Positions 1,692 through 34,349 of a stretch of 64,000 nt of DNA are shown piece by piece. The number at the start of each line of letters is the position of its first letter. Position 1 is the first letter of the stretch. A program made the translations under genes and the position numbers. The notes beneath the pieces are model-generated. The model was not told the DNA's origin and did no database searches. It worked only from the letters and a program-made list of their open reading frames with translations. The stretch is from a virus. The stretch lies in UHGV virus genome UHGV-1366828. One strand, 5' to 3'.

Positions 1692-2862
1692 GATTGGTGG
1701 TAGTAATATCTACACCCAATTTTTCGCTGACGTCAATATTAAGTAGTGTTTCAAAACTCTTGATGAACGGGTCGTCTTTCTTACTCAGCATACTGTAACA
1801 TCTGTCATACAGCTTACGAGCTTCTACAGGATTGGTCTGAAAATATGTGTAGACATTCTTCTTTCCGCGTATCTTAATCTCATTTCCCAGCTCGTCTTTC
1901 AGAAGTTCTCCTGTATCAGGATCTACAAGTTTAAATGACCCCTGAACTGAATTATCAATCAATCCAAGATGAACACCAACATCAATTGTATCCTGCAACC
2001 AATCAATTCCCTTAGTGTAATTAAGGTGTGCCATGCCAAGTTTTCTGTCCCATTTACATACCTTAGTTTTAAGGACGTAACACTCGATAATATGGCCTGC
2101 AGGAGATTCTGCTTTCTTCGTTAGGATATTACCCTCCTCGTCAAAGAAATCTCCTCGCTTAAACATAAGCCGCATAGAACAAGCATGCTTCCAAGCTCTT
2201 CCTCCAGGAGTAGTAAGAGGATCTCCATAACCGGTCATGTTTTCACGAACCTGATTGATTGCAATAAGTGTTGCTTTGTACTTACGAAGTAATCCTATAG
2301 CAGTATTTGCAAAACGAGTTAGAGCCTTGGCAATTCCGCCCATCTGTTGCTTCTCCATAGACTCATCAGCAATCTGCGCAGGGACAAGCGTTGCAATACT
2401 GTCGAATACAAGGAGTCCTACTTCCCCTGTCTTCAACATTTCAAGCGCCATGTCAAAGATCTCTTCTGCAGACTGCGCTTCTGGACGAATACATACAGTC
2501 TTAACAGCCGCATTCTCGCTCATGTCATAACCGAGCTTTGCTGCCCAAACAGGATCCGCTGTGCCTTCATTATCCAGAAATACAATGCATCGTGGGTTAT
2601 TCGGGTTCCTTGTAATCTCTGCTTTCTGATAAGACGCGCAAGCAAGAAAGGCGTTTGTAGTCTTGCCGCTCCCCTCAGCACCTGAGAATTCGACGATTCT
2701 CCCCTCTGGAATCCCCCCGTAAATTGCAAAATCAAGCCCCGGAGATCCCAAAGATAATACCCCGTCTACACACAGATCATCAACCCCAAACTTAACTACA
2801 TTGTCGCCATACTTCTTTGAAATAGATTTCAACACTTCATTTAAACTTTTTGACTCTGCCAT
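1678..2862 (-). CDS. recA: RecA/UvsX-family recombinase
   Basis: Walker A GAEGSGKTT; RecA core LIAINQVRENMTGYGDPLTTPGGRAWKHACSMRL (cf. [34 protein letters not shown]); GGAGGA SD before ATG at 2862 (MAESKSLNEV). Confidence 0.8.
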   Translation of the reverse strand: MAESKSLNEVLKSISKKYGDNVVKFGVDDLCVDGVLSLGSPGLDFAIYGGIPEGRIVEFSGAEGSGKTTNAFLACASYQKAEITRNPNNPRCIVFLDNEGTADPVWAAKLGYDMSENAAVKTVCIRPEAQSAEEIFDMALEMLKTGEVGLLVFDSIATLVPAQIADESMEKQQMGGIAKALTRFANTAIGLLRKYKATLIAINQVRENMTGYGDPLTTPGGRAWKHACSMRLMFKRGDFFDEEGNILTKKAESPAGHIIECYVLKTKVCKWDRKLGMAHLNYTKGIDWLQDTIDVGVHLGLIDNSVQGSFKLVDPDTGELLKDELGNEIKIRGKKNVYTYFQTNPVEARKLYDRCYSMLSKKDDPFIKSFETLLNIDVSEKLGVDITTTNLEEM

Positions 2863-4442
2863 TATGTCCTCCAAACAAAAGTAGATTGTCCACAATCATA
2901 TATACAAACAAAATTGTTTGCTAACATCAGCTCTTTATTTGAGCTACCTTTTCCATAGTTCGTGCCAAATAACTGGTCATACCCTCTTTGCATCAGTAGA
3001 TTGTTTGTAATGTGTTTCTTGTCCTTATCTCGATACCAATGTATGCTCGGCGCATTATTACTTAGTGGCATAAAGCCTAACTTTGTATAAACATCTCCAG
3101 TAAATTTACTGTTGTCACAGTAGGATATGACAGCTTCGGGTTTATATACATTGACAAAATATTTAAATAACTTTTCTGCCCCACCTATAACTAAATATTT
3201 ACATCTTGTACACAGACGAAGTAATTCCCATTGGTAATTCTTATTGTAACGAGGTTTGCCAAAGGTCATTACCTGCACAAGTTCATCATTATAGTATAGG
3301 CCTAACAGTACTTTCTGTCCGCTACAAGTATTCTGAAAATGATATGTATTTAAGAATGCGTCGCACTCTTTTTTATCTATCTCTCTTAAAGTACATTTAC
3401 GAGCATAAACAGATTGTTTGGAAAGTAAAGCTGAAACAATCTTTTGTTTATCGTCCCAGTCCCACACGTGAACACATCTGTAACCATTATCTTTCGCACA
3501 ATTTGATTTGTTAAGATGATATAAAGAGTCTATAGGCTCTCCAGGAAAAGGTGACCATGTAGTATTATGTGTGCTGTAAGGATCAATTTCAACTAAAATA
3601 TTGCCTATTCGAAAATCAAACCAATAATGACCAAGTCGAAATTCTTCTTCGTATTCTATACCTAGATTGTCCAAAAGGACAGCGAACTCATTGTTGTATT
3701 TACTATTTTTCTTGTAAGCTAAGTTCTTACGGCAGTCTTCTGTTACTACATATTCTTCTACACCGTAACGCTCTAGGTTAGTTTCACGTCGTTTGATACA
3801 TGCTTCAGAATATGACGCATGCAAGCTACCTTTATTTCTAATTCTGGTTTCTTTCGACTTTTGTTTTACAGCTTCGTTTTGAGCTGTACTTCTAGTCCCG
3901 TAACGCTGTAAATTTGTCTGTATAACTTTCTCTTTTATATCGTTGTTCTGCATTGCATTAACAACACCATATTTGCTTATACAAGTTTCTATGTGCTTGT
4001 CAATGTTATTGTAGTTTGCGTCGCCGTGCCGTTTTAGTTTCGTCTGTTTACATTTAATAACATTCTGCTTCTTCTGCTCTTCTGACTGTGAATGTATTCC
4101 TTTATTTACTAAAAGTTTGTTTCTTCCTTCATCAGACTTAATATGAAAGTACGCGAATATATGAGATAGCTGATTGTAATTGGGAATATTGAATTTTTCG
4201 CAAAGTTCTTTCGCAGAATAGGATTTAAAACATTCTTTAAATTCTGTTTCGTCAATATTCCCAATAAGTTGAAAGAATTTGTTTTGTGGGTTGTACTTCA
4301 CCAGATGATACCAGTAACGCAGCTTCTCTGACTGTGCTTCTGTAATGTTAAAATGTTTCAAAGTTTCAGACAAAGAGTGAGTTGTGTAATATTCCTCAAA
4401 CGAATCTTTTGGTATTGAGTTTACTAGTTCATCTAGTGTCAT
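2862..4442 (-). CDS. free-standing homing-endonuclease-like protein with a Vsr/DUF559-like PD-(D/E)xK nuclease core and repeated helical (K/R)YG DNA-binding-type modules
   Basis: HYWFDFRIGNILVEIDPYSTH resembles the Vsr/DUF559 nuclease signature; four ~30-aa repeats ending in RYG/RHG/KYG; inserted between recA and the coiled-coil gene. Confidence 0.35.
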   Translation of the reverse strand: MTLDELVNSIPKDSFEEYYTTHSLSETLKHFNITEAQSEKLRYWYHLVKYNPQNKFFQLIGNIDETEFKECFKSYSAKELCEKFNIPNYNQLSHIFAYFHIKSDEGRNKLLVNKGIHSQSEEQKKQNVIKCKQTKLKRHGDANYNNIDKHIETCISKYGVVNAMQNNDIKEKVIQTNLQRYGTRSTAQNEAVKQKSKETRIRNKGSLHASYSEACIKRRETNLERYGVEEYVVTEDCRKNLAYKKNSKYNNEFAVLLDNLGIEYEEEFRLGHYWFDFRIGNILVEIDPYSTHNTTWSPFPGEPIDSLYHLNKSNCAKDNGYRCVHVWDWDDKQKIVSALLSKQSVYARKCTLREIDKKECDAFLNTYHFQNTCSGQKVLLGLYYNDELVQVMTFGKPRYNKNYQWELLRLCTRCKYLVIGGAEKLFKYFVNVYKPEAVISYCDNSKFTGDVYTKLGFMPLSNNAPSIHWYRDKDKKHITNNLLMQRGYDQLFGTNYGKGSSNKELMLANNFVCIYDCGQSTFVWRT

Positions 4443-5034: not shown

Positions 5035-5502
5035 TCACCAAGTTTCTTCTAAATCTAATAATTGTTTATAATCAGAGTCAAGAAATACTCTTTTCTTCTT
5101 TGACGGTATATCGATTATTTCTTCTTTACCAAGATGCCGTATTCCTACAGACTGTTCATTTTTTGATAACAACTTCGTCACTGTTTTAATTGGAACATAC
5201 AAACATTTGTCTTTTTCGTACAGCCATAAGATTATTCCTACTCTTATTCCCGGAAGCCCGACAAACTGCGTCAGTCTATCATACTGAGAAACAGAACTAA
5301 ATGGAAGAGATGCTCCTGCATGACTCTTACACTCAAGTAAGAATAGTTTACCGTCAACATACGCTATGAAGTCACATAAGTTTGCAGAAGTATACTTGTA
5401 CCCGGACACTTGGTCATTCAATCTGAGTAAGAAAGTGCCCGGGAAACTGTTGTGCCAATCTTGACGAAATTTGTTTTCAAATTGTTTACCGTAATTCGGC
5501 AT
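5035..5502 (-). CDS. recU: RecU-like Holliday junction resolvase
   Basis: SGYKYTSANLCDFIAYVDGKLFLLECKS...QYDRL...GIRVGIILW follows the RecU pattern (DY.G...FE.K.T...Q..L...G..F.II). Confidence 0.5.
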   Translation of the reverse strand: MPNYGKQFENKFRQDWHNSFPGTFLLRLNDQVSGYKYTSANLCDFIAYVDGKLFLLECKSHAGASLPFSSVSQYDRLTQFVGLPGIRVGIILWLYEKDKCLYVPIKTVTKLLSKNEQSVGIRHLGKEEIIDIPSKKKRVFLDSDYKQLLDLEETW

Positions 5503-6617
5503 TACTGAACCCGAATTTCCGGAATAACGTTTGTCACATTGTTAGATACAAGAAGAATAGCAGAATTGTTTCCGAAGGATATGTGTACATTCTTAGTACG
5601 ATTACTATCCAGCATCTTTGTAAGTTCAATGATGTCAATTGTAACTTCATATGGCTCTACGATGCTGTTATTTGCTGTTTCGTACATAACCTTTTCTGTA
5701 CTATTCTTCTTAGTATCACTCACCTTAACAAACTCTCGTTCAAAGTCAAGGCAAGCAGAAGAAAGCATAGCATCCTGGGAGAACAGTGAGAAACGTTCAA
5801 GTGCTTCAAGAAGTTTGTTACGAGGAATACTTACGGTATAAGGCAGCTCGCCAGAGGCAAGGGAACGGATCCGATTTACCGGAACACTCTTCATCATAGT
5901 ATCATCGCAAGAAAGAATTGCCGACAGACGGACTTTCGGAGTTGTGAAAGAAATACGAGTCTGAATAATTTCATCACTAAGAGGCTCGGTTCCGTAACAG
6001 ATGCGAACCTGCTCATTTTCAAACAACTTGAACAGCTTAACAAGACGAGCGTTTAGAAGAAGCTTGATGTCTGCGCCCAGATCAAAGTTATTGACTGTTG
6101 CTCCGGAAGTGAATGTAAGAGCACCATGTTGGTCAATGTAGAAATACTTCTGAACAGCATTTGAAATAACACCAACATCAAGCTGACGACTATTTGCAGT
6201 CATAATACTGTTGAGCACATCAGACGACACATCAAATTCAGAAGAGATGTTATTCACTTCAATCTTTGGAAGTGTCATCATAACGGAATCTTCAAAGATA
6301 AGCGGCAGGCGATATGTTCCGTTTCCCTTAACAACAAGGAACTTGTCAGTAACGGAAAGTTCAACATATTCCGTTGTAATTCGAGAGATCAGCTTTGTAA
6401 ACAATTCCGCATCAACTGTTGCATGAATTTCTTCGGGTTCGTCAACAGGAATATTGATTGTAACAAAGTATTCTTTATTTGTCACTGAAAGTTGAAGTAC
6501 ATCGTCCTTTGTTTCAAGTTCAAGTACTTCTGTAAGCTGCGAGATGGAATTTGCATCTACAGCATTTGAAATTGTAGAGCAAGGCTTCTGAATTGTTTCA
6601 AGTTTAATTTTCATCAA
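5502..6617 (-). CDS. DNA polymerase sliding clamp (DnaN/beta-clamp-like)
   Basis: 371 aa; N-terminus MKIKLETIQKP...; three-domain-size protein in the replication module; weak DnaN-like pattern. Confidence 0.35.
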   Translation of the reverse strand: MMKIKLETIQKPCSTISNAVDANSISQLTEVLELETKDDVLQLSVTNKEYFVTINIPVDEPEEIHATVDAELFTKLISRITTEYVELSVTDKFLVVKGNGTYRLPLIFEDSVMMTLPKIEVNNISSEFDVSSDVLNSIMTANSRQLDVGVISNAVQKYFYIDQHGALTFTSGATVNNFDLGADIKLLLNARLVKLFKLFENEQVRICYGTEPLSDEIIQTRISFTTPKVRLSAILSCDDTMMKSVPVNRIRSLASGELPYTVSIPRNKLLEALERFSLFSQDAMLSSACLDFEREFVKVSDTKKNSTEKVMYETANNSIVEPYEVTIDIIELTKMLDSNRTKNVHISFGNNSAILLVSNNVTNVIPEIRVQ

Positions 6618-6670: not shown

Positions 6671-7381
6671 TCAAGAATCCCAGCCGGGGTACGGAATAAA
6701 CTTGTAGCAATTCATCAGTTCGCCGTCAAGTTTAATAATCTCTCCTGTCATGATTTTATTCTTAGTCAGAAGAAAGAAGATCCATTCCGCAACATCTCCT
6801 ACAGTTGAAAGACGTCCTGTAATACTCAGATCTTGAATTGCTTTCATAAGGTCGGGGTCAGCATAGAGTTCGGGTTCAAGCGCAGTTCCCACAAAACTTC
6901 CTTCAGCGGCAGGAACAATTCCGTCAATGTTGAGGGAATTAACAAGAACGTGTCGACTATCGTGGCCCAAGTTATTAGCTGCCCACTTCGTCAGAGCATC
7001 ACGACCTCCCTGTGACACACAATATTCCATGTTGTCGTATCCCTTAATTGAAGCTGTACTGCCAATCTGGACAATCGCCTTGAGCATTGGGTCCGAACTA
7101 TACTTCTTAATTATGTTCATGTACCCAATAAGATTAACTGCAATCGCCTGTGCCTTAGGCGTGACAATTCCTGCATTGTTAACAATGTACGTAATGTTTT
7201 TCAGGTCAGGCAGAGAATTGAAGTCACTTACATCACATTCATGATGAATATACTGACAAGACTGAGGAATTGTTGCAGGCTTCCAATCTAGACCTACAAC
7301 ACAATAACCCTCTTCAATAAACTTCATTGCTGCGGCACGACCTACACCATAACTAGTACCCGTAATAAGAACTGTTTCCAT
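6671..7381 (-). CDS. short-chain dehydrogenase/reductase (SDR) family oxidoreductase, translationally coupled to the dpdA-like gene
   Basis: TGTSYGVGRAAA Rossmann motif; NNAG motif; Y...K catalytic region. GGATGGTGA SD overlaps the dpdA stop, which lies 7 nt before the ATG (METVLITG). Confidence 0.55.
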   Translation of the reverse strand: METVLITGTSYGVGRAAAMKFIEEGYCVVGLDWKPATIPQSCQYIHHECDVSDFNSLPDLKNITYIVNNAGIVTPKAQAIAVNLIGYMNIIKKYSSDPMLKAIVQIGSTASIKGYDNMEYCVSQGGRDALTKWAANNLGHDSRHVLVNSLNIDGIVPAAEGSFVGTALEPELYADPDLMKAIQDLSITGRLSTVGDVAEWIFFLLTKNKIMTGEIIKLDGELMNCYKFIPYPGWDS

Positions 7382-7388
7382 GTTCAAT

Positions 7389-8312
7389 TCACCATCCCAA
7401 GCCATTTTTGAATGTTGTGTTATGAGGTTCGAGTTTAGCTACCCAATCAAGCGTGTCAAGAATATTAAACTCTGCACGCTTACCAGAATCCTGCTCCAGT
7501 TCTTCAAGCGTAAATCCTCGCTGTTTAATTCTTTTCAGCACATCTTCCTGAAGAGCCTTACTTTGCTGGCTTAGCGACCGGTCGTCTGCTTTTGCCTTCA
7601 TGACTTCGGAAACATGAATTGACTTATCGTCAACAGCTATCATTCCATACGCAGCACGCTTTACCCAAGAGGTAGCATCAGTGGAGGTTACAGTGATATT
7701 GTCCAGAACAGACTTTACTCCAACTCCGAAAGCGTGGGTCATTACATTAGGGTTAGAACTTTCATGAATAACTCGCATACACTCTCTACCCCAATTGATT
7801 CGGACCTTTTTCGTTCCTTCAAGAGAAATTGCTAGGCCAATATACTTAATCGGTGAGCCGTCAGGGTGACGATACTCGAGCATATTTCGGAGCCACTTAA
7901 AATCTTCCCCATAATGGAATACAGGGATGAGTTTGTCTCGAAGTTCCGGGCGAATTCTTTCAACCATGTAGAGATAATTATCCCAGGTAGTTTTAGCCTT
8001 ATTGTAGTCCATATTCATCGGGTCCGGAACATCATCAACTGCGACAAAAACAGTTACATAGTCTCCAATCTCATCAATGAACTTAAGATAGTCATCAATG
8101 TCAATATGGACTCCCTTTGTATATGCAGTAAAAGATCCAGAGTCTACCATAATACGTCCGGTATGCTCAGGATGTTCCTGCTTATACTCAATTAGGGACT
8201 TGATGCCCTTTCGCTCGTGCCACTGAGAGAAAAGCTGGTCAACATTCAATCGTCGTTTCATATCCTGATACGACATTCCTGAAAAATAATAGATTGTCTT
8301 CTCGTTTTCCAT
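7389..8312 (-). CDS. dpdA: DpdA-like tRNA-guanine transglycosylase superfamily protein (7-deazaguanine DNA transglycosylase)
   Basis: TGT signature blocks: MVDSGSF (cf. TDSGGFQ), VAVDDV (cf. IFDEC), YIGLAISLEG (cf. YAVGGLAVGE), FGVGVKS (cf. MGVGKPE), DATSWVKRAAYG (cf. PTRNARNG); no CxCxxC zinc site, as in phage DpdA. Confidence 0.6.
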   Translation of the reverse strand: MENEKTIYYFSGMSYQDMKRRLNVDQLFSQWHERKGIKSLIEYKQEHPEHTGRIMVDSGSFTAYTKGVHIDIDDYLKFIDEIGDYVTVFVAVDDVPDPMNMDYNKAKTTWDNYLYMVERIRPELRDKLIPVFHYGEDFKWLRNMLEYRHPDGSPIKYIGLAISLEGTKKVRINWGRECMRVIHESSNPNVMTHAFGVGVKSVLDNITVTSTDATSWVKRAAYGMIAVDDKSIHVSEVMKAKADDRSLSQQSKALQEDVLKRIKQRGFTLEELEQDSGKRAEFNILDTLDWVAKLEPHNTTFKNGLGW

Positions 8313-8420
8313 ATCATGCCTTCCTTAGCAATATTGATACCTTTATTATATAAAATTCTTATTTTCTTTTCAACTATACACTTTAGGAGAATGTTAGTGT
8401 TCAAAATGTTTTGACGTTTT

Positions 8421-8909
8421 TTAAGAAATACTAGTTACCCAGTCTAGTACTTCTTTTGGTGTATTTAAAACAGTGTGATTAGAAACTCCAAGTAGCATAT
8501 TGTTAATTGCAGGATCTGTAGCAACTGTCCAATATTGATGGGAGTTGGCAGGGAGTACCTCGATAGGATACACATTGTTTATCCTTGTGCCCTTATGCAG
8601 TTTACAAAACTCTGTTGCATAAAGTGCAACTGGTTTATGTAGTGCATATGCAATTCCCGCTTCCACAGCCGTGCCGGGGTCATCTCCGTCAATATAAGCA
8701 ACCATACAGTCGCAACCGATGATGTGCTCAACATCTGTATTGAACGTACTCAAAGAATCCTGGTATGTACTTTGGTCTTCAAAGATGACACCTTCGTCTC
8801 TCCAGGGGAAATATACTTCATGCCCTGCGGCTTCGAGCATGTCAGCAATCTTCTTTTCATGCTCGAAGTAGGCAAGGTTATCCATAATCTGTGCAAAGTA
8901 TATCTTCAT
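8421..8909 (-). CDS. nucleoside 2-deoxyribosyltransferase superfamily protein (NDT/DNPH1-like)
   Basis: KIYFA...IIGCDCMVAYIDGDDPGTAVEAGIAYALHKPVALY matches the NDT/Rcl core (ADVVVAEV...LGVGYELGRAVA..KP). Confidence 0.5.
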   Translation of the reverse strand: MKIYFAQIMDNLAYFEHEKKIADMLEAAGHEVYFPWRDEGVIFEDQSTYQDSLSTFNTDVEHIIGCDCMVAYIDGDDPGTAVEAGIAYALHKPVALYATEFCKLHKGTRINNVYPIEVLPANSHQYWTVATDPAINNMLLGVSNHTVLNTPKEVLDWVTSIS

Positions 8910-9694
8910 TACGCAGCCACCAGAGTAGGGGCGTCAAGGTTCTTGTTGACCTCTTGTGCTTCTTTCACAAGGTCGACATATTCCTGACCCACGTTATTCT
9001 TTCTCCAGGAATTAGCAATCTTGAATCCAATAGGGGAGAAAATCATCTGACCAATCAGCTCAATTACCATTCCCATAGCAGACATCGGAATCAGATGCAC
9101 AATGGCACCGAGTGTTCCCGCGTCCATGAACCAAGGCTGCCAAATACTGAAAAACAGACCGAAGAAGAAATTGTCCACAAACTGACCAAAAGCAGTTGAC
9201 ACCCAAGAAGCAGTAACGTACGCCTTCGCCGATGTACGATTCTTAAACTTCAGCAGGATGTACTTTGAAATGAGTGAGTTAACAATGTTACCAAAAAGGG
9301 CAGCACCGGCACCAGCGAACAGAGGCCAAGGGGCAGCAACAAACAGCGCACTGAAAATAGCAGATTCTTCAGGTGTCGCACCATACGAAGCAAAAGGCAA
9401 CATTGCGCCGATTGTCATCAGACCAATTGAAACAAGTTCAAGAAGCAACGCCGCAATGTTAATCTTGATTGCTGCTTTTGCACCGAATCGTTTTACAAGC
9501 ATATCAGACGCAAGGAACACTACCCAAGAAACAATAATGCCACAATCAAAAGGAACGGGACCAATAGCACCGCCTCTATTTGCCAGAAAGTTCATAGCAA
9601 TTAGACACGCCACAAGAAACGCAAATGGGATCGTCGGCATACATCTAAACAGTACTTTTGTTTCGTTCCATTCTTTCTTAAGATATTCAACCAT
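8909..9694 (-). CDS. yhhQ: YhhQ/COG1738-family queuosine-precursor (preQ0/preQ1) transporter
   Basis: multi-TM protein; FLASDMLVKRFGA (E. coli YhhQ FLATDLTVRIFGA) and TAFGQFVDNFFFGLFF (YhhQ TLFGNVSDTLAFFFIAF); start overlaps the stop of the NDT-like gene. Confidence 0.7.
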   Translation of the reverse strand: MVEYLKKEWNETKVLFRCMPTIPFAFLVACLIAMNFLANRGGAIGPVPFDCGIIVSWVVFLASDMLVKRFGAKAAIKINIAALLLELVSIGLMTIGAMLPFASYGATPEESAIFSALFVAAPWPLFAGAGAALFGNIVNSLISKYILLKFKNRTSAKAYVTASWVSTAFGQFVDNFFFGLFFSIWQPWFMDAGTLGAIVHLIPMSAMGMVIELIGQMIFSPIGFKIANSWRKNNVGQEYVDLVKEAQEVNKNLDAPTLVAA

Positions 9695-9772
9695 TTTAAA
9701 CTATCTCCTATTTTTATTTTTAATTTTACAGGATAGGCTGGTGGGATTTTCGAACAGCCTGTACTATATCTT

Positions 9773-10030
9773 TTACTCAGATTTTATTAGTTTTATCAGA
9801 TAGTAGACATGAGTAATCAAACAAATAACATTCAGAAGTACGGTGCTGAAAGACCCAATCCAAAATCCGTACAGGATCATCAGGACACTTCCTGTGAGGT
9901 TAAGCAACCGCATACGAATATTTCCGCTTCTACTATCAGATTTAACTGTCATAGAGAGCAGGACAAAACCTGACGCAAAAATTCCTAGTGCTTCTCTAAG
10001 GGTTACATTTTGAACTATATTCACTAACAT
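9773..10030 (-). CDS. small 3-TM membrane protein, first gene of the deazapurine operon
   Basis: 85 aa, hydrophobic segments; directly downstream of a strong promoter. Confidence 0.4.
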   Translation of the reverse strand: MLVNIVQNVTLREALGIFASGFVLLSMTVKSDSRSGNIRMRLLNLTGSVLMILYGFWIGSFSTVLLNVICLITHVYYLIKLIKSE

Positions 10031-10088
10031 CCTCCTAAAATGTATACTTGCTACGTCATTGAATCACTCCCTACATATTATACAACAT

Positions 10089-10117
10089 ATTATAGTGTAT
10101 TCTTTAACGTTCTTCAA
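10089..10117 (-). promoter_or_regulatory. sigma-70-type promoter TTGAAG-N17-TATAAT (minus strand), plus a second TGTTGTATAAT extended -10 just downstream
   Basis: minus-strand TTGAAGAACGTTAAAGAATACACTATAAT; sits between the polA stop and the membrane-protein gene. Confidence 0.5.
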
Positions 10118-11200
10118 CTTAATAGCTGAGTTAACTGTTCAGAAGTTAGCTCACTATGTCCTTCTAAAAGTTTATTGAAAGCTTCTTCTTTTGACACTCC
10201 AGAGTCTATAAGCTTCTGCAACTCTTGTTTTAATATGTCTCCGAAGTCATCTTCATACCAACAATTTACAATATATCCGTCGCACTTGAACGGTACTTGC
10301 ACCTTATCTGCAACAGAGGTTTTCATAACATAGGTCAAACGATTCATAACAGCTTCAGCGTTTTGCTTGGGGCATTCTACAATAACTTCATCATGAATCT
10401 GAAGTACTAGTTTAGCTCCTAGACGATTTAACTCTTCATCGTCAAATACTTTACGCATACATACCTTGGTCATCGAAGCTGCTCCGCCCTGGATACGAGC
10501 ATTTACGCACTGTCTTTCAGCCTGGCTTATAAATGCCCCATTGTCAACAATGTAGATGCCGTCCTTTTCCGCTTCTTGCTGAATCTTTTGATAGTCATTA
10601 CGCGATTTAACTTTTGAAAGTTTTTTCTTATACGACTCAACAAGGGCTGCAGAAGAATCGTTTACTTTACCCAACGTATAAAGAATCGGATTAAACTCCG
10701 TACTGGGCTTAGTGTTCTTTACTGTATACTTTGGAAGAAGTATGTCAGGCAATCTTCTACGTCTTCCCCAAAGGTCTTCTACATAACCAGTGACTTTTGC
10801 ATCTTTCTCTGTTTTCTCAGTCCACTCTTTAACCTTTGGAAACTGGTTATAAAAATCATTGATAATCTGTTGAGCTTCTTCTACAGTTGAATGAATCTGC
10901 TCGGCAATACTAGGAGCTCCTCTGCCATACATTATTCCAAGAATTAGACTTTTACAGTTACTACGTCTTTTCTTGCCTTCCGGATTAGGAGTTCCATCCT
11001 GACGATGCTCCATATTATCCCAGTAGTCGTTCTTGTATACAACAGACGCAACTGTAGCGTACAGATCCTTGTTTTCCTTATATGCAGCTATCATTGTATC
11101 GTCATTGGAATACGCAGACAAAAGACGGGGTTCCTGCTGCAACTACGAGAAGTCAGCTCCAACAAACACATTAGTCGTTCTAGTTCTGACTTTACTCATG
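10114..11200 (-). CDS. polA: family-A DNA polymerase, C-terminal segment (motifs A, B, C). It has its own SD-ATG (GAGGGGGTGATTAC-ATG, MSKVRTRTTNVFVGADFS) and one in-frame TAG at the motif-A Gln position
   Basis: GADFS[TAG]LQQEPRLL (cf. DYSQIELRIL); RRSNCKSLILGIMYGRGAPSIA (motif B, cf. RRSAKAINFGLIYGMSAFGLA); LVLQIHDEVIVE (motif C). Confidence 0.6.
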
Positions 11201-11258
11201 TAATCACCCCCTCGTTCAACTTTAATTTTCTCCGCATGAATTTTTCTTCTTTCCGTTT

Positions 11259-11519
11259 TTAATTAAAAAGGAATTTTATATCATTGCCTACATTGAAAAT
11301 ATTAGTGATAGTTCTTTGTGAGTATACTCCGTCATCTTCTATACTACACAGAGTATCTCCAACTGCAAGTTCGTCTGCTCTTTTCCATACACTAGGGCTT
11401 ATTTCTACTTCATCAGCAGCGGACACAGTAATAGAATTATTTTCAACTTCCGTGTCTTTTATACGTGTTCCTGCAGTAAACATCAATCGTATTTCTTTCG
11501 TATGAGACGGGATATTTTG
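11259..11519 (-). CDS. polA: family-A DNA polymerase exon 2 (QNIPSHTKEIRLMFTAG...) followed by ~64 non-polymerase codons ending in TAA
   Basis: starts exactly at QNIP, the continuation of PNL in exon 1; IRLMFTAG matches IRRAF(x)A. Confidence 0.5.
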   Translation of the reverse strand, partial: QNIPSHTKEIRLMFTAGTRIKDTEVENNSITVSAADEVEISPSVWKRADELAVGDTLCSIEDDGVYSQRTITNIFNVGNDIKFLFN

Positions 11520-11782
11520 CATTATGTTATCGTTAAGCTCTTTATCTTAACTTCTGTGACTATTTAGTATTCATCACAGTTCAGACTATATCATCAACTT
11601 GTAAAACAAGTTGCTGTGCGCTCGTGGAAGAATTATTGATATTAACTCTCATCTTCTAGTCGTTGCACCTTCAAGAAGATTTCCTTCTTGCTTGGCTCAG
11701 AGTTGTAGCATACAAGACTAAACTATTTTCTCTGAATTCACACAGTTTTCATATACTGTCGCCAGTATACGCCTCCATTGGA
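11520..11782 (-). other. group I self-splicing intron (ORF-less, ~263 nt) in polA between the PNL and QNIP codons
   Basis: exon 1 ends in U, intron ends in G; P1 candidate cctt|t with GGAGG internal guide; R-like CAACGACUAGAAG; S-like GAUGAUAUAGUCUGA (cf. AAGAUAUAGUCC); stops in all frames. Confidence 0.55.
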
Positions 11783-13138
11783 TTAAAGGTTCGGGTTACT
11801 AGAGCTGAATCTACCTGTACCTGCCCCAAGCTGATTAAAATGCGCGTGCAACCGATTATCTTTACTGTTTACACATTCCGGAATCTTGTCTATATACGTT
11901 CCGATCAGTTTTTCAAGGCCGCGTTTTTCAAGAATCAAATCGCATATTGGAAGCTTGATTTTCTGAAGAATTTCTTCTCCTGTTCCTCGAGGAGCTTTCT
12001 TGTCCTGTGCGGGTGTTCCTAGTATGTCATACAACAGAATTGCAAGCTGTGTAGGACTATTTAACTGCGGAGGATTTTCTAACTGTTCATTCTTTGACTT
12101 CTTGTAAGTAAATTCCCCCGCCTTATTAGGCTTTGAATTACGCTCTTTATAGTTTGCTTCTTTTGTCAATCTCCATGCAGATATCTTGTCAGAATACTTT
12201 GACAACTCCGTGTCAATCTTCGCGTTCACTTCGTCTACTTTTTTGTGGTACTTGTTGCTGAGTCTTTTCGCGTATTCTTTGTCAATCTCAATGCCATAAA
12301 GTTCCATTTCTGCGCACACGGGAACAACTGGCATTTCAACGTTCATAAACAGATCAAATAGCATTTCATTTCCAGGCTTATTAAACTGTTCCTTCTGCCA
12401 CTCATACAGTCTGTAAGTTATATAGGCATCCGTTGCTGCATACAAAGCAAAGATTTCGGGTCTAACATAAGCATACGGAATTCCTTGAAATAGATGCTCT
12501 ATATCATACTTTTCTTGAGTACTGTCAATATGAAGTATGTATTGTTTTTTCAAGCCTGCAAGCTCATTTTCATCGAGTATTCTTGCTGCTATTTCAGTGT
12601 CCCAATAAATATTCAGAACACAATTACAAGTACACTTGATAACCTCATAGTCAAACTTTCCGTTATGCATGAGAATCTGTGTGTTGGAAAGACGGTCAAA
12701 CTGCTCTTTGATATCTAGCTCTGTAAGCTGGTTCTCAATGAGAATGTCTGTGTCGGGTTGTGTATGATGAATAGGAATATATGCGCTAAGTTGACCCGGA
12801 GTATAGATACAGGCGCCCATAAGTAAACAAGTAAGAGGTTCAAGACTGTTATTTGTTTCTGTGTCTATAGCAATTATTCCGTTACGGATAGCTTCATCAA
12901 TATACTGTGACAACTCATCTTTTGATGTAATCACCTTTGTATTGGAAGTATATCCTCCGAGAACTCTGTTTACTTCTTCATAAATAAGCTGCAATTTGTC
13001 AAAGGTAGAAACTGTCTTTGACTTTATAGCCTTTCTAGTTTCTACCTTTGGGTCTTTAGGAGAACTGACCTTCTTTGCAACTTTCTTCACTTCCTTCTTT
13101 GCGGAAGGAACTTCAAATTCATCTCCCCACAGGGACAT
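11783..13138 (-). CDS. polA: family-A DNA polymerase exon 1 (3'-5' exonuclease domain and N-terminal polymerase domain up to ...GRFSSSNPNL)
   Basis: Exo I AIDTETN; GTGRFSSSNPNL matches Pol I TGRLSSSDPNL(QNIP). Confidence 0.75.
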   Translation of the reverse strand: MSLWGDEFEVPSAKKEVKKVAKKVSSPKDPKVETRKAIKSKTVSTFDKLQLIYEEVNRVLGGYTSNTKVITSKDELSQYIDEAIRNGIIAIDTETNNSLEPLTCLLMGACIYTPGQLSAYIPIHHTQPDTDILIENQLTELDIKEQFDRLSNTQILMHNGKFDYEVIKCTCNCVLNIYWDTEIAARILDENELAGLKKQYILHIDSTQEKYDIEHLFQGIPYAYVRPEIFALYAATDAYITYRLYEWQKEQFNKPGNEMLFDLFMNVEMPVVPVCAEMELYGIEIDKEYAKRLSNKYHKKVDEVNAKIDTELSKYSDKISAWRLTKEANYKERNSKPNKAGEFTYKKSKNEQLENPPQLNSPTQLAILLYDILGTPAQDKKAPRGTGEEILQKIKLPICDLILEKRGLEKLIGTYIDKIPECVNSKDNRLHAHFNQLGAGTGRFSSSNPNL

Positions 13139-15111: not shown

Positions 15112-17421
15112 TTACAACACATCTTCTTCAAATTCTTTTGCTAATTCTTCTGAGCCCTCACCCGCCAAAGCGTTTCCTTCTTCAGGCAAATATTCAAATA
15201 CCCCTCGGTCAAAATTTGATGCATATCGAAGTTTTTGATTGTTTACAGCGTCTCTTGCCTTTGACAGATTAAGTGTCAGAATATCATCTTTCTGTTCAAG
15301 GAATATTACAATAGTACTATCCTGTGAAATTCTATCTGACTGTGCAATGTGACTTACATCAACACCCGAGGAAGTATCATTTCGATTCTGTTGAGAAACA
15401 GCGATGATTGGTATCTTCTCCATAACTTGAAGGTTTTTCAAATCTCTTGAAATGTTTGAAGCTTTTTCTACAGGATTTCTTGCCCTTCTATCATCTTCTA
15501 GTAAGGAGTGTTGGTCCACAAATAGAATGTCCAACTTGTCTTGTTCTATAAATGCCCTTAATGCAGTAACCCCTGCAGGCCCGTTAATGTCATTAGGTGT
15601 CAATACCTTGAAGGCAGTTGAAAACCTGTTACGCAACGAATCAATGTGCCGCTTATACTCGTTCTGTAGGTCTGCATTACCTCGAGTTATTCCATAGTTA
15701 GAAATGTGCCCCGACAAAGTATCAAATCGGTAGCCTACTTTATTTGTAGACATCTCACCAGAATACACTCCAACCGTCAACCCTTGTTCGAGAGCTGCAA
15801 CAGCGCATTTAAGAAGCACCCACGTATTATGCGTCAGTGTATTGTCCCATAGCATATATCTATGGTCTCCATCAAGCATAAATCCATAATATTCAATCTT
15901 TTCAACAGGTTCAATGTAGAACTTTGAAACTGCAGGATTATGACGACTATGCACAACATCGGACTTCTTCCGTTCAATCTTACAAGGAATTATGCCAACA
16001 GGACCTGTTATACTGATACTGTAATAAGGACCGTAATCCTTTCCATTATACTTTGAGTAAGACTCTTTAATTTTCCCAACTTTTAGTCCGACACCACGAC
16101 AAATCTGTGCAATATCCTCAACTAATTTTCTATTTTTCTGTGTCAGAGAATAACCTGAAACATCAGACTTATCTTTATACCTCCAAAGGCATTCTCCGTC
16201 AGTGTCTATTAACCCTGCCAGCAACTGCAACCGTTGTTCCTTGCTAGAAATGATATACTCGTGAGGTATATGTTTGTTGTTAAACAACTCTAACTCTTTG
16301 AATATTTCAAGTACGGGGTTTTTACCGCCCTTCTTTGTACCCTTAGTTACTTCCCAACCGAGAAGTCTGCCATTGAGATATTCTCTCGGAGAACAAACAA
16401 GCCCGTAATTTGCTGCAAAAGATGTCCAATAATTCTGGACTTCGACATCAGGGCAAGTCATCTCTACTCTACAAGCCGTGCCGTCTCCCAGCCAGGATCC
16501 AAGAATGTAGGGGTCTAGCTTCAAATGTTTTTCTGTGTAATCAACTGCCGGACGAAAGATTTTGTAATACTCTTGAGTACGTGGAGGCAAAGACATATAA
16601 TCCTCAATCTTCATGTCAACAAGAGTTTTCTCCCATGTAACAACCTTATCATGCTCGTGCGGAATGTTGGCATATAGAGTTAAAATATGGTCTGCGGAAA
16701 CAGTAAACGGTTCTCCTGAAGCGGGCACAATCTTATACCCATTGGACACTCCATTATGTAGACCTATTACTTTATTCACGCATTTATAACCTTGCACCTC
16801 ATCTCCGACGCGAACTTCTTCAACAGGTTTAGTAGTTCCGTCTGCCATTAGAACACGCGTTCCTTTTTCAAGACATTTGCCTACACCTGGACGTGCCGAT
16901 ATAGTAGCAAGCTCTTCATTTCTGTCCCAGCCACCAATCAATTTATCAAGCTCGTTGAACCCGGTTTTAACATAGTACTTTTCAAAATCTCTACAACGTT
17001 CAACATATGCATCGTATCTTGAAGTGTCTACAAGAAGGTCAGTTGATTGGAAATGCTTTGCTTTCACAACAGATTCCTGAGCTGTTGTGTAAACAGACAG
17101 TGCTTCGTCTACTTTGTTCTTCATCAAAAGGTCTCGTACCTTATTAAAGATTGTAGCCAGTAGACGTGTATTTCTATCTTTTACTAGTTCATCAATAAGA
17201 TAGTTATTAGGTTCTTCAACCTTTAGTACATCAAAATCCGGAAACTTTGCAACAAATGTTGCTACATCGGGAATTCTGCCGTAGTTATCAAAGTGTTCCT
17301 TTATGAAATGAAATTCATCTAGGTAATCACTGAAATATTCGTCATCAAGATTATTGCTAATAAGAAGTGACGAGTCGTTATTTGCCAGCATCTTATTGAG
17401 AACCTGCGCCTGAATAATCAA
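15112..17421 (-). CDS. dnaB: DnaB-family replicative helicase interrupted by an intein
   Basis: Walker A split: ARPGVGK|C...HN|TWVLL; H2-H4 motifs SGEMS, ILFVDQHSLL, IIAVSQQNRN. Confidence 0.8.
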   Translation of the reverse strand: MIIQAQVLNKMLANNDSSLLISNNLDDEYFSDYLDEFHFIKEHFDNYGRIPDVATFVAKFPDFDVLKVEEPNNYLIDELVKDRNTRLLATIFNKVRDLLMKNKVDEALSVYTTAQESVVKAKHFQSTDLLVDTSRYDAYVERCRDFEKYYVKTGFNELDKLIGGWDRNEELATISARPGVGKCLEKGTRVLMADGTTKPVEEVRVGDEVQGYKCVNKVIGLHNGVSNGYKIVPASGEPFTVSADHILTLYANIPHEHDKVVTWEKTLVDMKIEDYMSLPPRTQEYYKIFRPAVDYTEKHLKLDPYILGSWLGDGTACRVEMTCPDVEVQNYWTSFAANYGLVCSPREYLNGRLLGWEVTKGTKKGGKNPVLEIFKELELFNNKHIPHEYIISSKEQRLQLLAGLIDTDGECLWRYKDKSDVSGYSLTQKNRKLVEDIAQICRGVGLKVGKIKESYSKYNGKDYGPYYSISITGPVGIIPCKIERKKSDVVHSRHNPAVSKFYIEPVEKIEYYGFMLDGDHRYMLWDNTLTHNTWVLLKCAVAALEQGLTVGVYSGEMSTNKVGYRFDTLSGHISNYGITRGNADLQNEYKRHIDSLRNRFSTAFKVLTPNDINGPAGVTALRAFIEQDKLDILFVDQHSLLEDDRRARNPVEKASNISRDLKNLQVMEKIPIIAVSQQNRNDTSSGVDVSHIAQSDRISQDSTIVIFLEQKDDILTLNLSKARDAVNNQKLRYASNFDRGVFEYLPEEGNALAGEGSEELAKEFEEDVL
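15826..16875 (-). mobile_element. intein (350 aa) with LAGLIDADG homing endonuclease in the DnaB P-loop
   Basis: Cys1 (CLEKGTRVLMADG), LAGLIDTDG, C-terminal THN followed by Thr+1; excision restores GVGKTWVLL. Confidence 0.7.
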
Positions 17422-31463: not shown

Positions 31464-34349
31464 TCATACAGTAAGACCCTGTATGTATTTTCGGAGGCTG
31501 TCGATGCTTCGTTCTTCTATCTTATCATCAATAATGTAATCGCTAATTGCTCCCTTGTCATGGACTAACTCATCAACTCTCTGGTCAATGGTGTTATTGC
31601 TAATAAGATAGTGAATGAAAACGGGCTTCTTTGAACCAATTCTGTGAATACGGTCTTCACATTGCTGACAATCTGCTGCCGTCCAAGGGTTACTAACAAA
31701 GATTGCATGTGTTGCTCTATTTAGTGTAACACCCGTACCCATCTTACTAGTTGTACAGAGCATTACCATGTGTTCATTGTCATTTTGAAATTTCTCTATG
31801 TTCTCGTTTATGATAACATCAGGAACATCGCCTGTACAAAGTAGCGGTTTATACTGTTTGAGGTCTTCCTTTAGCGTATTTAAAGTGTCTTTAAATGTAC
31901 TGAATACAACAACTTTTTCGTCACCCGACACAATCTGTTCTACGAGATCTTCTGCAACAGAAACTTTTTCAGACTTTATACTTTCTGTTGTAAGAACAGA
32001 GGGACATTCTGTAGCCTGCCGTAACCGAGCTACCATTGACAAAATGTTTGCTGTAGACATATCTACTTTGTCGACCTGGTCAACAATACCTGCTTGAATG
32101 TTGGAGTAGAATGTTTCCTGTGTGGGGTTCATTTCTACAATCTGCGTAATTATTGTCTTTTCTGGGAGGTCAAGAAGATCTTTCGTTCTTCTTAGTGAAC
32201 ACTCGTTAAGCTGTTCCTTTAACGTATCAACATTTCTGTAACCTACAAAATCGTTGTTGAAGAACCCTGTATAGTTACAGTAGTAATACTTAAAGTTACT
32301 AAAACTGCAATGTTCCTTACCAATCCACTTCAATGGAATGTAAGCATCAAGAGGACTATTAAGAAGTAACGTTCCCGTTAAAGCTACTCGATACTTTGCA
32401 GAAGTTAACTTCAGAAAATTCTTAGACTGAACAGCTGTAGGATTCTTACAACGATGGACTTCATCAATGATAATGAGGTCGAACTTATTTGCGCCTTTAT
32501 TGATTCCTTTTACAACATTTGCATCTCTTAAAGTTTCAATGTTTGTTACAACAAAGAATTCATCAATGGTCCTGTTTAGATCAGCAACTCTGTCATTCAC
32601 ACTTCCGATTGTGAATTTACCAGATTTTGTAATACGTTGACCTAATATGTAACAACTTTCCTTAGTATGTTTTTCAATTTCTCTTTTCCAGTTGAATTTA
32701 AGGTTGTTAACACCACAAATAATTAAACAGTGCTCAATCCCTTCACGCTTTTTCAGTTCGAGAGCCAAGTAAAGCATCTGCAACGTATTATGTGTTACAC
32801 AGCACCCTTCGATTAGATACGTCTTTGAAGGGCTGTCAACAGTAATACATCGTCCAACTTTCAAAGTTATGGGCTCAATTTTAGCAAACCGCCTTCTCGG
32901 ATTACCTCCATTGCTTCTTGCTCTTAACAACTCTTTCTTACGTGGCAGGGTTACAAACAAGGAAGGGTCGGCTACACGTATGGTTAGACTATAGGACAAT
33001 CCTGTACACTTCCCGTTATATTTAGCTTGTCCTACATGTTTATGACATATTCCTCCTAGGGACTCTACAATTTCACGAACATCGTCACACAATTTCTCAG
33101 AGACAGTTGAGTAATCTAAGTGATTATCCTTAGCAGCATAACCATCTGTGTCAAACAGTCCTCGAAGAACGTCCATTCTAACTTCAACAGTGTTGTACTT
33201 ATAGACATCAGGAATAAATTTGGTGTGAGAAGTACAACCAAACAATCCCAGGTCAAGAAGGTCTTGATGCAAGGGATTTCCAGCTTCTCTTCTGTACGAC
33301 CACCTAGACCCGGCATATAAACTGTTTTGATTAATACTATATTTTATTTCGTCCAATTTTTTATACATAAGATTAGTATTATCTGTCGGCAACCCTAGAT
33401 ATCTGCACACCTCTTTACCTGACCCAATTCTAACGCCGTCCGCATACCATACGTAACCTCTGTTTGTAATAACTTGTCCCTCTTTCTGGCATATTCTATA
33501 GGATATTGGGGCGCACTTTTTCAACTGTAAATCTTCGGGAAGGTTTTCCCTTACTTTGTTTACAATATGTTCATCCACAGTTGTAATATCAATGGATTTT
33601 GAGATGCTACCGTCACCAAGTAAGACCCCTAACAAATAGGGTTGAATTGGGACATTTTGATGAACAAACTGAATGGGTTTTGTTAGGGGCACATAGTAAG
33701 GCGTTTCTTTTGAGTCAATACGTCTGTAAGATTTTCTACAATCATTCTCAAGAAACCACTTAGTAGGAACAACTCTTCCGTCGGATAATAACCACAAATG
33801 GTCTTCGCAACAGTCAACAGTTAAGCCATCTGTGAATGTAACTCTGTACATATTCAGGTTATCGTGGTCATACACTGCTAACACTTTGCAAGGATTGCCC
33901 TCTTTGTCTATAACAAAATCTCCTACTTTTAATTCTCCCATTGTGGTTTTACCCGTAGGAGTATACACACTAGTATCTAAACTAACGGCTTTTCCAAGAC
34001 CGGGTGCGTCAAGAAGTAGCCATTTATCATGAGACAGGCCAAATTTTATCCCGTCGGCTTGATATGGAAACGGAGTTGTTTTAAACTCGCTAAGTTGAAC
34101 ATCTTTAACAGGATGTTTCTTTTCATCAGGCTTCAACTTTAACTCAATATCGTCAAAAACATTAACACTATTTATAATTGAAGCAAGGTCAGTAACAGGG
34201 ACTTCCCACATCTTACTTTTCTTGTCATAGTTAGCTACAGTAACACTGTTTTTAAGTGCTTCTATAATGTCTTTGTTGTACTCAAAGCTAACATACAGAG
34301 AAGAGGTGCCGGGAACCTTGCTGTTTAATTTTTCTTCAATCGTTATCAA
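31464..34349 (-). CDS. SNF2/DExH-family helicase interrupted by an intein
   Basis: motif I split: DAPGLGK|A...HN|TLQML; DEVH box IIIDEVHRCKN; SNF2-type C-terminal helicase domain. Confidence 0.7.
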   Translation of the reverse strand: MITIEEKLNSKVPGTSSLYVSFEYNKDIIEALKNSVTVANYDKKSKMWEVPVTDLASIINSVNVFDDIELKLKPDEKKHPVKDVQLSEFKTTPFPYQADGIKFGLSHDKWLLLDAPGLGKAVSLDTSVYTPTGKTTMGELKVGDFVIDKEGNPCKVLAVYDHDNLNMYRVTFTDGLTVDCCEDHLWLLSDGRVVPTKWFLENDCRKSYRRIDSKETPYYVPLTKPIQFVHQNVPIQPYLLGVLLGDGSISKSIDITTVDEHIVNKVRENLPEDLQLKKCAPISYRICQKEGQVITNRGYVWYADGVRIGSGKEVCRYLGLPTDNTNLMYKKLDEIKYSINQNSLYAGSRWSYRREAGNPLHQDLLDLGLFGCTSHTKFIPDVYKYNTVEVRMDVLRGLFDTDGYAAKDNHLDYSTVSEKLCDDVREIVESLGGICHKHVGQAKYNGKCTGLSYSLTIRVADPSLFVTLPRKKELLRARSNGGNPRRRFAKIEPITLKVGRCITVDSPSKTYLIEGCCVTHNTLQMLYLALELKKREGIEHCLIICGVNNLKFNWKREIEKHTKESCYILGQRITKSGKFTIGSVNDRVADLNRTIDEFFVVTNIETLRDANVVKGINKGANKFDLIIIDEVHRCKNPTAVQSKNFLKLTSAKYRVALTGTLLLNSPLDAYIPLKWIGKEHCSFSNFKYYYCNYTGFFNNDFVGYRNVDTLKEQLNECSLRRTKDLLDLPEKTIITQIVEMNPTQETFYSNIQAGIVDQVDKVDMSTANILSMVARLRQATECPSVLTTESIKSEKVSVAEDLVEQIVSGDEKVVVFSTFKDTLNTLKEDLKQYKPLLCTGDVPDVIINENIEKFQNDNEHMVMLCTTSKMGTGVTLNRATHAIFVSNPWTAADCQQCEDRIHRIGSKKPVFIHYLISNNTIDQRVDELVHDKGAISDYIIDDKIEERSIDSLRKYIQGLTV
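32787..33989 (-). mobile_element. intein (401 aa, Ala at position 1) with LAGLIDADG homing endonuclease in the SNF2 helicase P-loop
   Basis: block A AVSLDTSVYT..G, block B TDGLTVDCCEDHLW, LLGVLLGDGSI and LRGLFDTDGYAA, C-terminal VTHN plus Thr+1. Confidence 0.6.

Follow-up and report, generated by a model that had tools for sequence, protein, structure and literature searches.

A putative salvage-type DpdA DNA-modification module with a conserved short-chain dehydrogenase gene in uncultured gut myoviruses

The 64,000-nt stretch of the virus genome UHGV-1366828 analyzed here (the window) stems from a myovirus, with genes for a tail sheath (59913-61253) and for T4 gp19-like and baseplate-like proteins. 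It has a GC content of about 39% and strong Shine-Dalgarno sites, and its minus strand carries a large replication module. Within this module, five minus-strand open reading frames (ORFs) lie between the gene for the C-terminal region of a DNA polymerase of family A (PolA, 10114-11142) and the sliding-clamp gene (5502-6617). A sequence-only reading of the window had proposed that they form one operon for a salvage-fed 7-deazaguanine modification of DNA, with genes for a membrane protein, a YhhQ transporter, a nucleoside 2-deoxyribosyltransferase-like protein (NDT) and a DpdA-like transglycosylase, as well as an SDR (short-chain dehydrogenase/reductase). All five ORFs were recovered on the same strand where that reading had placed them, and profile and fold searches bore out the identities. 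The locus contains the following features:

9773..10030, minus strand: small membrane protein, 85 aa, three transmembrane segments, half-YgjV/SemiSWEET-like (Pfam Imp-YgjV, E 4.9e-6)
8909..9694, minus strand: YhhQ-family transporter, 261 aa, Vut_1/COG1738 (PF02592, E 2.8e-16)
8421..8909, minus strand: NDT-family protein, 162 aa, nucleoside 2-deoxyribosyltransferase family (PF05014, E 8e-18)
7389..8312, minus strand: phage-type DpdA, 307 aa, tRNA-guanine transglycosylase (TGT) superfamily (phrog_887, DpdA of phages Dp-1 and CAjan, fold)
6671..7381, minus strand: classical SDR of atypical kind, 236 aa when counted from the conserved start codon; full ORF of 244 aa reaching to 7405 (PF13561/PF00106, E 6e-12)
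10089..10117, minus strand: promoter-like site P1, TTGAAG-N17-TATAAT (10/12), upstream of the small membrane protein gene
8345..8373, minus strand: promoter-like site P2, TTGAAA-N17-TATAAT (11/12), directly upstream of dpdA

In comparison with a 95%-identical strain (locus L006), all five genes are under purifying selection, with ratios of nonsynonymous to synonymous substitution rates (dN/dS) between 0 and 0.24; the ratio is 0.03 for the YhhQ gene, and dpdA has a dN of 0 at a dS of 0.25. Two gene pairs had been described as coupled by stop/start overlaps. This applies to the YhhQ and NDT genes, the stop and start codons of which overlap by one base (TAATG at 8909), whereas dpdA and the SDR gene are merely adjacent, and the SDR start codon common to the homologues (ATG 7381, METVLITGTS) lies 7 nt past the dpdA stop codon. 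The promoter that had been postulated in front of the five genes is present as TTGAAG-N17-TATAAT at 10117..10089 (P1), where it overlaps the PolA stop codon according to a scan and inspection of the sequence. However, promoter-like sites are not enriched in the region (8 found versus 9.4 +/- 3.1 expected from shuffled sequences), an equivalent of P1 exists in just two of 11 related lineages, and the better-scoring P2 is situated in the 108-nt gap between the NDT gene and dpdA. The element AGTTGAnn-N17-TATAAT is found directly 5' of dpdA in eight of 11 divergent lineages (equivalents in L006, L002/3, L004, L012, L014, L015 and L045), and two more have TATACT variants (L009 and L016). In L002/3, L004 and L016 it is preceded by terminators consisting of a hairpin and a T-run. 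Because the better site before dpdA recurs across divergent relatives, the module probably comprises two transcription units, one with the genes for the small membrane protein, YhhQ and NDT and the other with dpdA and the SDR gene. The one-promoter operon of five genes was rejected on these grounds, and its view of five equal parts also gives way, as NDT turned out to be accessory in the comparative context (see below). The recurring element may represent a promoter type specific to this phage family.

The DpdA protein escaped the curated models: Pfam yielded no match at E <= 0.1, TGT (PF01702) included, and sequence searches of the PDB with the protein and with its family profile returned nothing relevant, so that among the PDB searches the fold search alone placed it. 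Because its score against NF041059, the equivalog model of bacterial DpdA (bDpdA), is 12.4 bits at a cut-off of 200, it is placed outside bDpdA and in a divergent phage clade. Nevertheless, homologues, fold and catalytic residues agree in placing it inside the TGT/DpdA superfamily, as the sequence-only reading had claimed. It matches phrog_887, 'queuine tRNA-ribosyltransferase', at 3e-39, shares 35% identity with the DpdA from the Streptococcus phage Dp-1 (1e-44 by tblastn and 3e-50 by phmmer), and is matched by the validated DpdA of phage CAjan with a phmmer E-value of 5e-21. With an AlphaFold (AF2) model that has a mean predicted local distance difference test score (pLDDT) of 86, Foldseek returned from the PDB at ranks 1-11 ArcTGT (1iq8, 1e-6), TGTs of bacteria, QTRT of the mouse and the Salmonella DpdA (7ui4, 3e-4), with one unrelated TIM-barrel protein at rank 10. 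In an alignment of 25 DpdA homologues D57-S-G-S-F61, D93, H133 and D212 are invariant, and in order and spacing they match Asp95/Phe99, Asp130, His181 and Asp256 of the bDpdA of S. Montevideo; this assignment was made by motif and spacing and not by structural superposition. For bDpdA, the acid/base, base-recognition and nucleophile residues have been shown by mutagenesis (PMC10164549). By this correspondence the Asp of the D-S-G-x-F motif would be the general acid/base, the next Asp would recognize the base, the last Asp would be the nucleophile, and the His would bind the base. A distant DpdA of 407 aa (L054:839-2059, 36% identity) contains an N-terminal 'LYFAG...LFS' segment three times in tandem.

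The fold and the database labels raise the question whether the substrate is tRNA. PHROG and GenBank label the family 'queuine tRNA-ribosyltransferase', the top fold matches are tRNA transglycosylases, and Hutinet et al. (2019) proposed that some phages raise the level of queuosine (Q) precursors for tRNA; an enzyme of this kind could remodel the Q status of host tRNAs with imported precursor and thereby favor phage translation. We consider this highly improbable. The 307-aa protein consists of the catalytic barrel alone, without PUA or C-terminal tRNA-binding domains, and has a single Cys, therefore it lacks the Cys3-His zinc site of TGTs. In addition, it groups with validated DNA-modifying phage DpdAs, its gene lies between polymerase and clamp as in Dp-1 and CAjan, and the 64-kb window does not contain any tRNA gene.

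The search for relatives retrieved 381 metagenomic homologues of DpdA at E <= 1e-5, many of them on contigs that are 130-200 kb long. Twenty loci have a DpdA of at least 54% identity, and in every one of them the module is placed between PolA and the sliding clamp, in the order PolA-[small membrane protein]-YhhQ-[NDT, SGNH hydrolase or none]-DpdA-[DUF7487]-SDR-[297-aa protein, YvcK/CofD-like protein, nucleotidyltransferase]-clamp, with variable members in brackets. None of the 20 loci lacks YhhQ, DpdA or SDR, and most of them also have the small membrane protein. The conserved core thus consists of the small membrane protein, YhhQ, DpdA and SDR. Between lineages, DpdA and SDR are better conserved than the clamp, with 64 and 61% identity against 43% in L001. 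The locus L052, on a contig of a metagenome-assembled genome (MAG) with a DpdA of 36% identity, has the changed order PolA-YhhQ-SDR-small membrane protein-DpdA-clamp. Because L052 keeps the set in reshuffled form, the four genes seem to be held together by function and not by frozen synteny. Public resources added little: searches of INPHARED with megablast and tblastn detected no family member apart from a 4-kb unannotated fecal fragment, NDT and YhhQ had no match there and the SDR only generic matches of 26-28%, and look-ups of protein clusters gave no public names for the module proteins. A scan of GTDB genomes did not reveal any relative with at least 54% identity, hence no host could be assigned; relatives with 26-40% identity were on MAG contigs of mixed taxa.

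It could be argued that the genes are only loosely connected, with DpdA working on the host preQ0 pool and with transporter, NDT and SDR as independent auxiliary metabolic genes, for example for nucleotide salvage or for FabG-like lipid or redox functions. The slot between PolA and clamp indeed gathers variable cargo (DUF7487, SGNH hydrolase and CofD-like genes), PHROGs lists similar proteins as auxiliary metabolic genes, the best matches of the SDR are generic FabG proteins and ketoreductases, and the yhhQ gene in the dpdA cluster of CAjan is dispensable for modification (PMC7544227). This view is nevertheless unlikely. All four core genes are retained in L052 in a new order, dpdA is directly followed by the SDR gene, with a conserved promoter-like element in front of the pair, and the SDR clade has an active-site change of its own and, as far as its 237 homologues were viewed in context, was found in this module only.

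The YhhQ homologue scores 60.7 bits against PF02592, for which the gathering score is 27.2, and covers profile positions 1-148 of 152, so the protein encoded by 8909-9694 falls inside Vut_1/COG1738. Against TIGR00697, the 'queuosine precursor transporter' model, it reaches 33.9 bits and thereby stays under the equivalog cut-off of 50.95. The claim of a YhhQ-family importer is hence supported by family membership and by the association with 7-deazaguanine genes, but not by the TIGR00697 score. YhhQ adjoins DpdA in all 20 close loci as well as in L052, L054, L055/56 and L059, and the homologues in L055/L056 stand among QueC, QueE and FolE. The neighboring 85-aa protein matches Imp-YgjV above the Pfam cut-off and has a weak match to SemiSWEET_2 of NCBIfam; its true start may be GTG 10024, 6 nt past AGGAGG. 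Most relatives, and also the outgroups L052 and L054, have small homologues of it within the module (E 1e-14 to 1e-18).

Genes for precursor synthesis were searched with phmmer, using FolE, QueC, QueD, QueE, QueF-like and QueT proteins of Dp-1 and CAjan as queries against six-frame ORFs of at least 50 aa. FolE, QueC, QueD and QueE are absent from the 64-kb window (best E > 0.1), and preQ0 genes were likewise not found in 9.8 kb past the window end (identical ENA contig, L049), in about 21 kb before its start (93-96% identical IMG/VR genome of 133.6 kb; L048, L051), and within +/-10 kb of dpdA in all close relatives. The reported absence of preQ0 synthesis genes was thus upheld for the window and about 31 kb of flanking sequence, and a DpdA system fed by salvage or by the host is a reasonable reading of it. 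The accompanying statement that phages with DpdA normally carry preQ0 genes was overstated, as phages with DpdA but without preQ0/G+ genes form the largest group in the survey of Hutinet et al. (2019), with 76 phages. For these phages the use of host preQ0 or uptake has been proposed, and YhhQ was found in some phages (Hutinet et al., 2019). When CAjan lacks folE or queC, preQ0 from the host is still inserted, although 12-fold less of it (PMC7544227); therefore, DpdA can run on a pool that is not made by the phage.

An alternative is that the base is not a 7-deazaguanine, that Vut_1 imports another purine- or vitamin-like compound, and that the DpdA-clade enzyme inserts this compound or a form of it processed by the SDR, with further decoration in long modules by a nucleotidyltransferase and a YvcK/CofD-like protein. 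In agreement with this, no deazaguanine biosynthesis gene is nearby, YhhQ stays under the TIGR00697 cut-off, DpdA does not match Pfam TGT or the NCBIfam DpdA equivalog, and the SDR, the YvcK/CofD-like, the IspD/GlmU-like and the 297-aa proteins have no counterpart in known deazaguanine pathways. However, sister lineages pair related DpdAs with deazaguanine genes, namely, L055/L056 (DpdA 31% identical; DpdA-QueC-YhhQ...QueE-FolE), L053 (DpdA-QueC) and L060/61 (DpdA beside QueC/QueE/FolE genes), and because of this pairing, which includes YhhQ in L055/56, the DpdA/YhhQ clade is tied to 7-deazaguanine metabolism. Furthermore, the closest characterized homologues, those of Dp-1 and CAjan, insert preQ1 or preQ0, and Asp93 and His133, which serve base recognition, are retained as they are in TGT and DpdA. 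A base outside the 7-deazaguanines is thus rather improbable. The comparison also suggests that the lineages with an SDR have swapped precursor synthesis for something else.

The NDT-family protein scores 65.1 bits against PF05014 (cut-off 28.8) and matches the NDTs 6evs and 7m5h of the PDB at E 1e-7. It keeps the nucleophile Glu in DDPGTAVEAG (D-x-G-T-x-x-E-x-G) and a conserved C-terminal INNMLLG (NxM) motif, while the N-terminal Y-x-A-G-P-x-F region reads IYFAQIMDN, with Tyr and Ala retained and G-P-x-F replaced. The protein is part of a tight, phage-only clade of 147 proteins with at least 72% identity. Its position within the module is a slot with changing content. In L008/L009, the DpdA of which is 91% identical to that of the window, the slot is filled by an SGNH/GDSL hydrolase gene (9259-9903), as it also is in L004, L013, L015 and L017; NDT is shortened to 129 aa in L002, while the near-identical L003 keeps 167 aa; and it is absent in L012, L014, L016 and L045. 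NDT is thus a swappable accessory outside the conserved core.

These findings bear on a suggestion of the sequence-only reading, according to which NDT attaches an imported 7-deazapurine to deoxyribose, so that after phosphorylation the nucleotide could be incorporated by PolA and DpdA would have a secondary role. The intact nucleophile and NxM motif, the translational coupling to the transporter and strong purifying selection (dN/dS 0.02; 78% identity where DpdA has 58-64%) are in line with such a route, and Hutinet et al. (2019) noted that undetected 2'-deoxyribosyltransferases could not be ruled out. Yet the route is weakened because NDT is replaced, truncated or absent (also from L052) while DpdA and SDR are never lost. 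In addition, the module is devoid of a nucleoside or nucleotide kinase, and a 2023 study described all known 7-deazaguanine DNA modifications as post-replicative insertions by DpdA (PMC10516641). We therefore regard incorporation at the nucleoside level as very unlikely.

The SDR gene is located downstream of dpdA in 20 of 20 close loci. The protein has a classical FabG-like fold, with generic FabG, ketoreductase and 17beta-hydroxysteroid dehydrogenase structures as neighbors, and carries TGTSYGVG, Asp32 after beta-2, NNAG, Asn83, Ser108 and Tyr120. The Lys of the YxxxK motif is replaced by Gln124, which is invariant in the clade, as is Arg127; hence the catalytic Asn-Ser-Tyr-Lys tetrad is incomplete, and membership in the family is given by fold and profile. 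The orthologue in L052 retains YAASK. By the usual SDR rules, the Asp after beta-2 suggests a preference for NAD over NADP. Gln124 and Arg127 may reflect a relocated positive charge (Y-x6-R) or an altered chemistry; FabI, for comparison, has Y-x6-K. The best 120 of 237 homologues are all at least 61% identical and unannotated, and the one homologue that was examined by context (P0161, loci L045-L047) sits in the same module. A pterin-type role was considered and found unsupported, as the fold search gave no signal for pteridine reductase, sepiapterin reductase or dihydropteridine reductase.

Taken together, we favor, with a confidence only a little above even, the reading that the five genes represent the minimal form of a salvage-type DpdA DNA-modification cassette in uncultured gut myoviruses of about 130-200 kb. 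Judging from homology, fold and residues, DpdA would act after replication and replace guanines of the double-stranded phage DNA with a base of the 7-deazaguanine type. The base would be imported via YhhQ, possibly with participation of the small SemiSWEET-like protein, and/or be taken from the host pool. An NAD-type SDR with a remodeled active site, co-expressed with dpdA, would supply a redox step that the exchange requires; it would either turn the imported compound into the substrate of DpdA or tailor the base once it is inserted. The NDT-family enzyme would be optional and might release or exchange the base of a (deoxy)nucleoside, with the SGNH hydrolase taking its place in sister phages.

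Several points weigh against this cassette reading. The sub-cut-off TIGR00697 score leaves the queuosine-precursor substrate of the YhhQ homologue putative. The search for preQ0 genes covered all but about 38 kb of the roughly 133.6-kb genome. Genes that occur together within a single phage family do so partly because synteny is inherited, and functional linkage is argued only by the reshuffled L052 and by the accessory turnover around a fixed core. The SDR, devoid of the canonical catalytic Lys, could be inactive or do an unrelated job. Two DpdA-only phages analyzed by liquid chromatography-mass spectrometry, 7-11 and Orion, had trace or no modification. Finally, we estimate that, for a replacement of more than ~1% of G, import alone would have to deliver about 10^5-10^6 bases in each burst, which is demanding; it would be easier to reconcile with a modification that is sparse and motif-specific, or with a precursor that is abundant, such as queuine.

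A more specific proposal is that the SDR provides either a new salvage step, by which a compound abundant in the gut would become the DpdA substrate, or a new C7 side chain in DNA, undescribed for DNA 7-deazaguanines. The strict linkage of DpdA and SDR seems to strengthen the notion that the SDR marks a new derivative, and yet the proposal is tentative and, in our view, rather doubtful. One possibility for a salvage step would be an NAD-dependent oxidation followed by beta-elimination, which would free preQ1 from queuine and thereby replace QueL.

Many relatives add three genes directly after the SDR gene, which are not present in the window phage. The extension was found at the following positions:

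L001:12911-16240, L004:13845-17175, L012:11621-14971 and L045:10736-14106: long-form extension, three genes past the SDR gene

The genes encode a 297-aa protein that does not match any family, a YvcK/CofD-like protein of about 570 aa and an IspD/GlmU-like nucleotidyltransferase. They may represent a further decoration step, and in such long-form modules the side chain could be decorated by the latter two proteins to yield a 7-deazaguanine hypermodified with a phospho-sugar or polyol. A reading of the accessory genes as CofC/CofD of F420 biosynthesis was rejected: the YvcK subfamily model TIGR01826 gives 70.6 bits compared to 16 bits for F420 CofD, and the nucleotidyltransferase is IspD/GlmU-like. 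DUF7487 ORFs of variable size and number occur near dpdA (L001:9067-10017 and 10906-12123; L004:11163-13067; L045:7229-8692) and are absent in other lineages; they behave like mobile insertions and not like pathway genes.

The closest characterized DpdA is that of Dp-1, with a cluster that consists of QueF-like, QueC, QueD, QueE, FolE, QueT and DpdA. In Dp-1 as in the window, dpdA is next to a transporter gene and just upstream of genes for clamp, RecU and UvsX-like proteins, and both have strong Shine-Dalgarno sites and a GC content of about 39-40%. In contrast, Dp-1 has the full preQ0 pathway and QueF, of which the window phage has none, its transporter belongs to QueT instead of Vut_1/YhhQ, and it lacks the SDR, NDT and small YgjV-like protein. 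In its DNA, dPreQ1 makes up 1.7% of G, and QueT is beside dpdA. The phages CAjan and 9g (Queuovirinae, DpdA1) resemble the window in that DpdA is next to the genes for polymerase and processivity factor and that a gene of the preQ0-transporter family (yhhQ) is in the cluster, whereas CAjan makes its own preQ0 with FolE/QueD/QueE/QueC, has a DpdA of 27% identity, and has no SDR or NDT. The DpdA-only phages (group 3; Salmonella 7-11, Mycobacterium Orion) share the lack of preQ0/G+ synthesis genes. About 9% of bacterial dpd islands carry YhhQ. However, neither these islands nor the DpdA-only phages have a dedicated SDR or small membrane partner, and the DpdA of bacteria is a member of a different subfamily and requires DpdB, in keeping with the score of only 12 bits of the window protein against NF041059.

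Bacterial operons for queuine/queuosine salvage reportedly combine a YhhQ or ECF-QueT/QrtT transporter with the nucleoside hydrolase QueK and the queuine lyase QueL. The arrangement is alike, with a transporter, then a possible base-freeing enzyme and then a transglycosylase, but QueK is of the inosine-uridine nucleoside hydrolase (IUNH) type and not of the NDT family, QueL is a radical-SAM enzyme and not an SDR, and the target is tRNA instead of presumably DNA. The substrate range of DpdA has been described as flexible, including preQ0, preQ1 as well as CDG (7-carboxy-7-deazaguanine), in the 2023 study, which does not contain terms for NDT and SDR (PMC10516641). Our literature search did not yield any paper that links an SDR or NDT to DpdA, in agreement with the earlier view that both partners are outside described Dpd systems. 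Therefore, the salvage-fed idea, the link to YhhQ and DpdA-only phages were already known. What this module adds is the obligate SDR together with the small membrane protein, the slot for NDT or SGNH hydrolase, and the accessory genes of the long form.

The surrounding replication genes of this phage family are rich in mobile insertions. PolA is split into three ORFs (11783-13138, 11259-11522 and 10114-11142) by an insertion of about 646 nt (window 11140-11785), exactly at the conserved motif SSSNPNL | QNIP, and the 87-aa ORF in the insertion restarts with MQNIP. L006 has an uninterrupted PolA ORF of 820 aa, with 84 nt in place of the insertion, which resembles a mobile intron or else a split-gene insertion. 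An ORF for a 526-aa HNH/homing endonuclease (2862-4442; insertion 2873-4436; phrog_3339, 6e-66) adjoins the gene of a UvsX-like recombinase, is absent in the 95%-identical strain, and appears to be a free-standing homing endonuclease insertion. The ORF for a DnaB-like helicase (15112-17421) contains an in-frame insertion of about 1047 nt (15830-16876), absent in L006, which looks like an intein. Similar extra PHROG matches of the intein or homing endonuclease type were obtained for a 961-aa helicase (31464-34349), and L003 encodes a RecA that contains LAGLIDADG.

With 7-deazaguanines in their DNA, phages are protected from Cas9 and from restriction enzymes, and eight derivatives together with their enzymes are known so far. 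The module described here is widespread, with hundreds of metagenomic homologues, in a family of large gut myoviruses of which no member has been cultured or is represented in GenBank. The module does without precursor synthesis and couples DpdA to an SDR, which no described pathway uses. Its minimal unit of two genes, dpdA and the SDR gene, to which YhhQ may be added, has a size that allows a direct test in E. coli. If the SDR is functional, the module would represent a new route for scavenging the micronutrient queuine or preQ1 in the gut, or would produce a ninth-or-later DNA base derivative, and, if true, this would bear on sequencing bias in viromes, on restriction evasion and on the competition for queuine in the gut.

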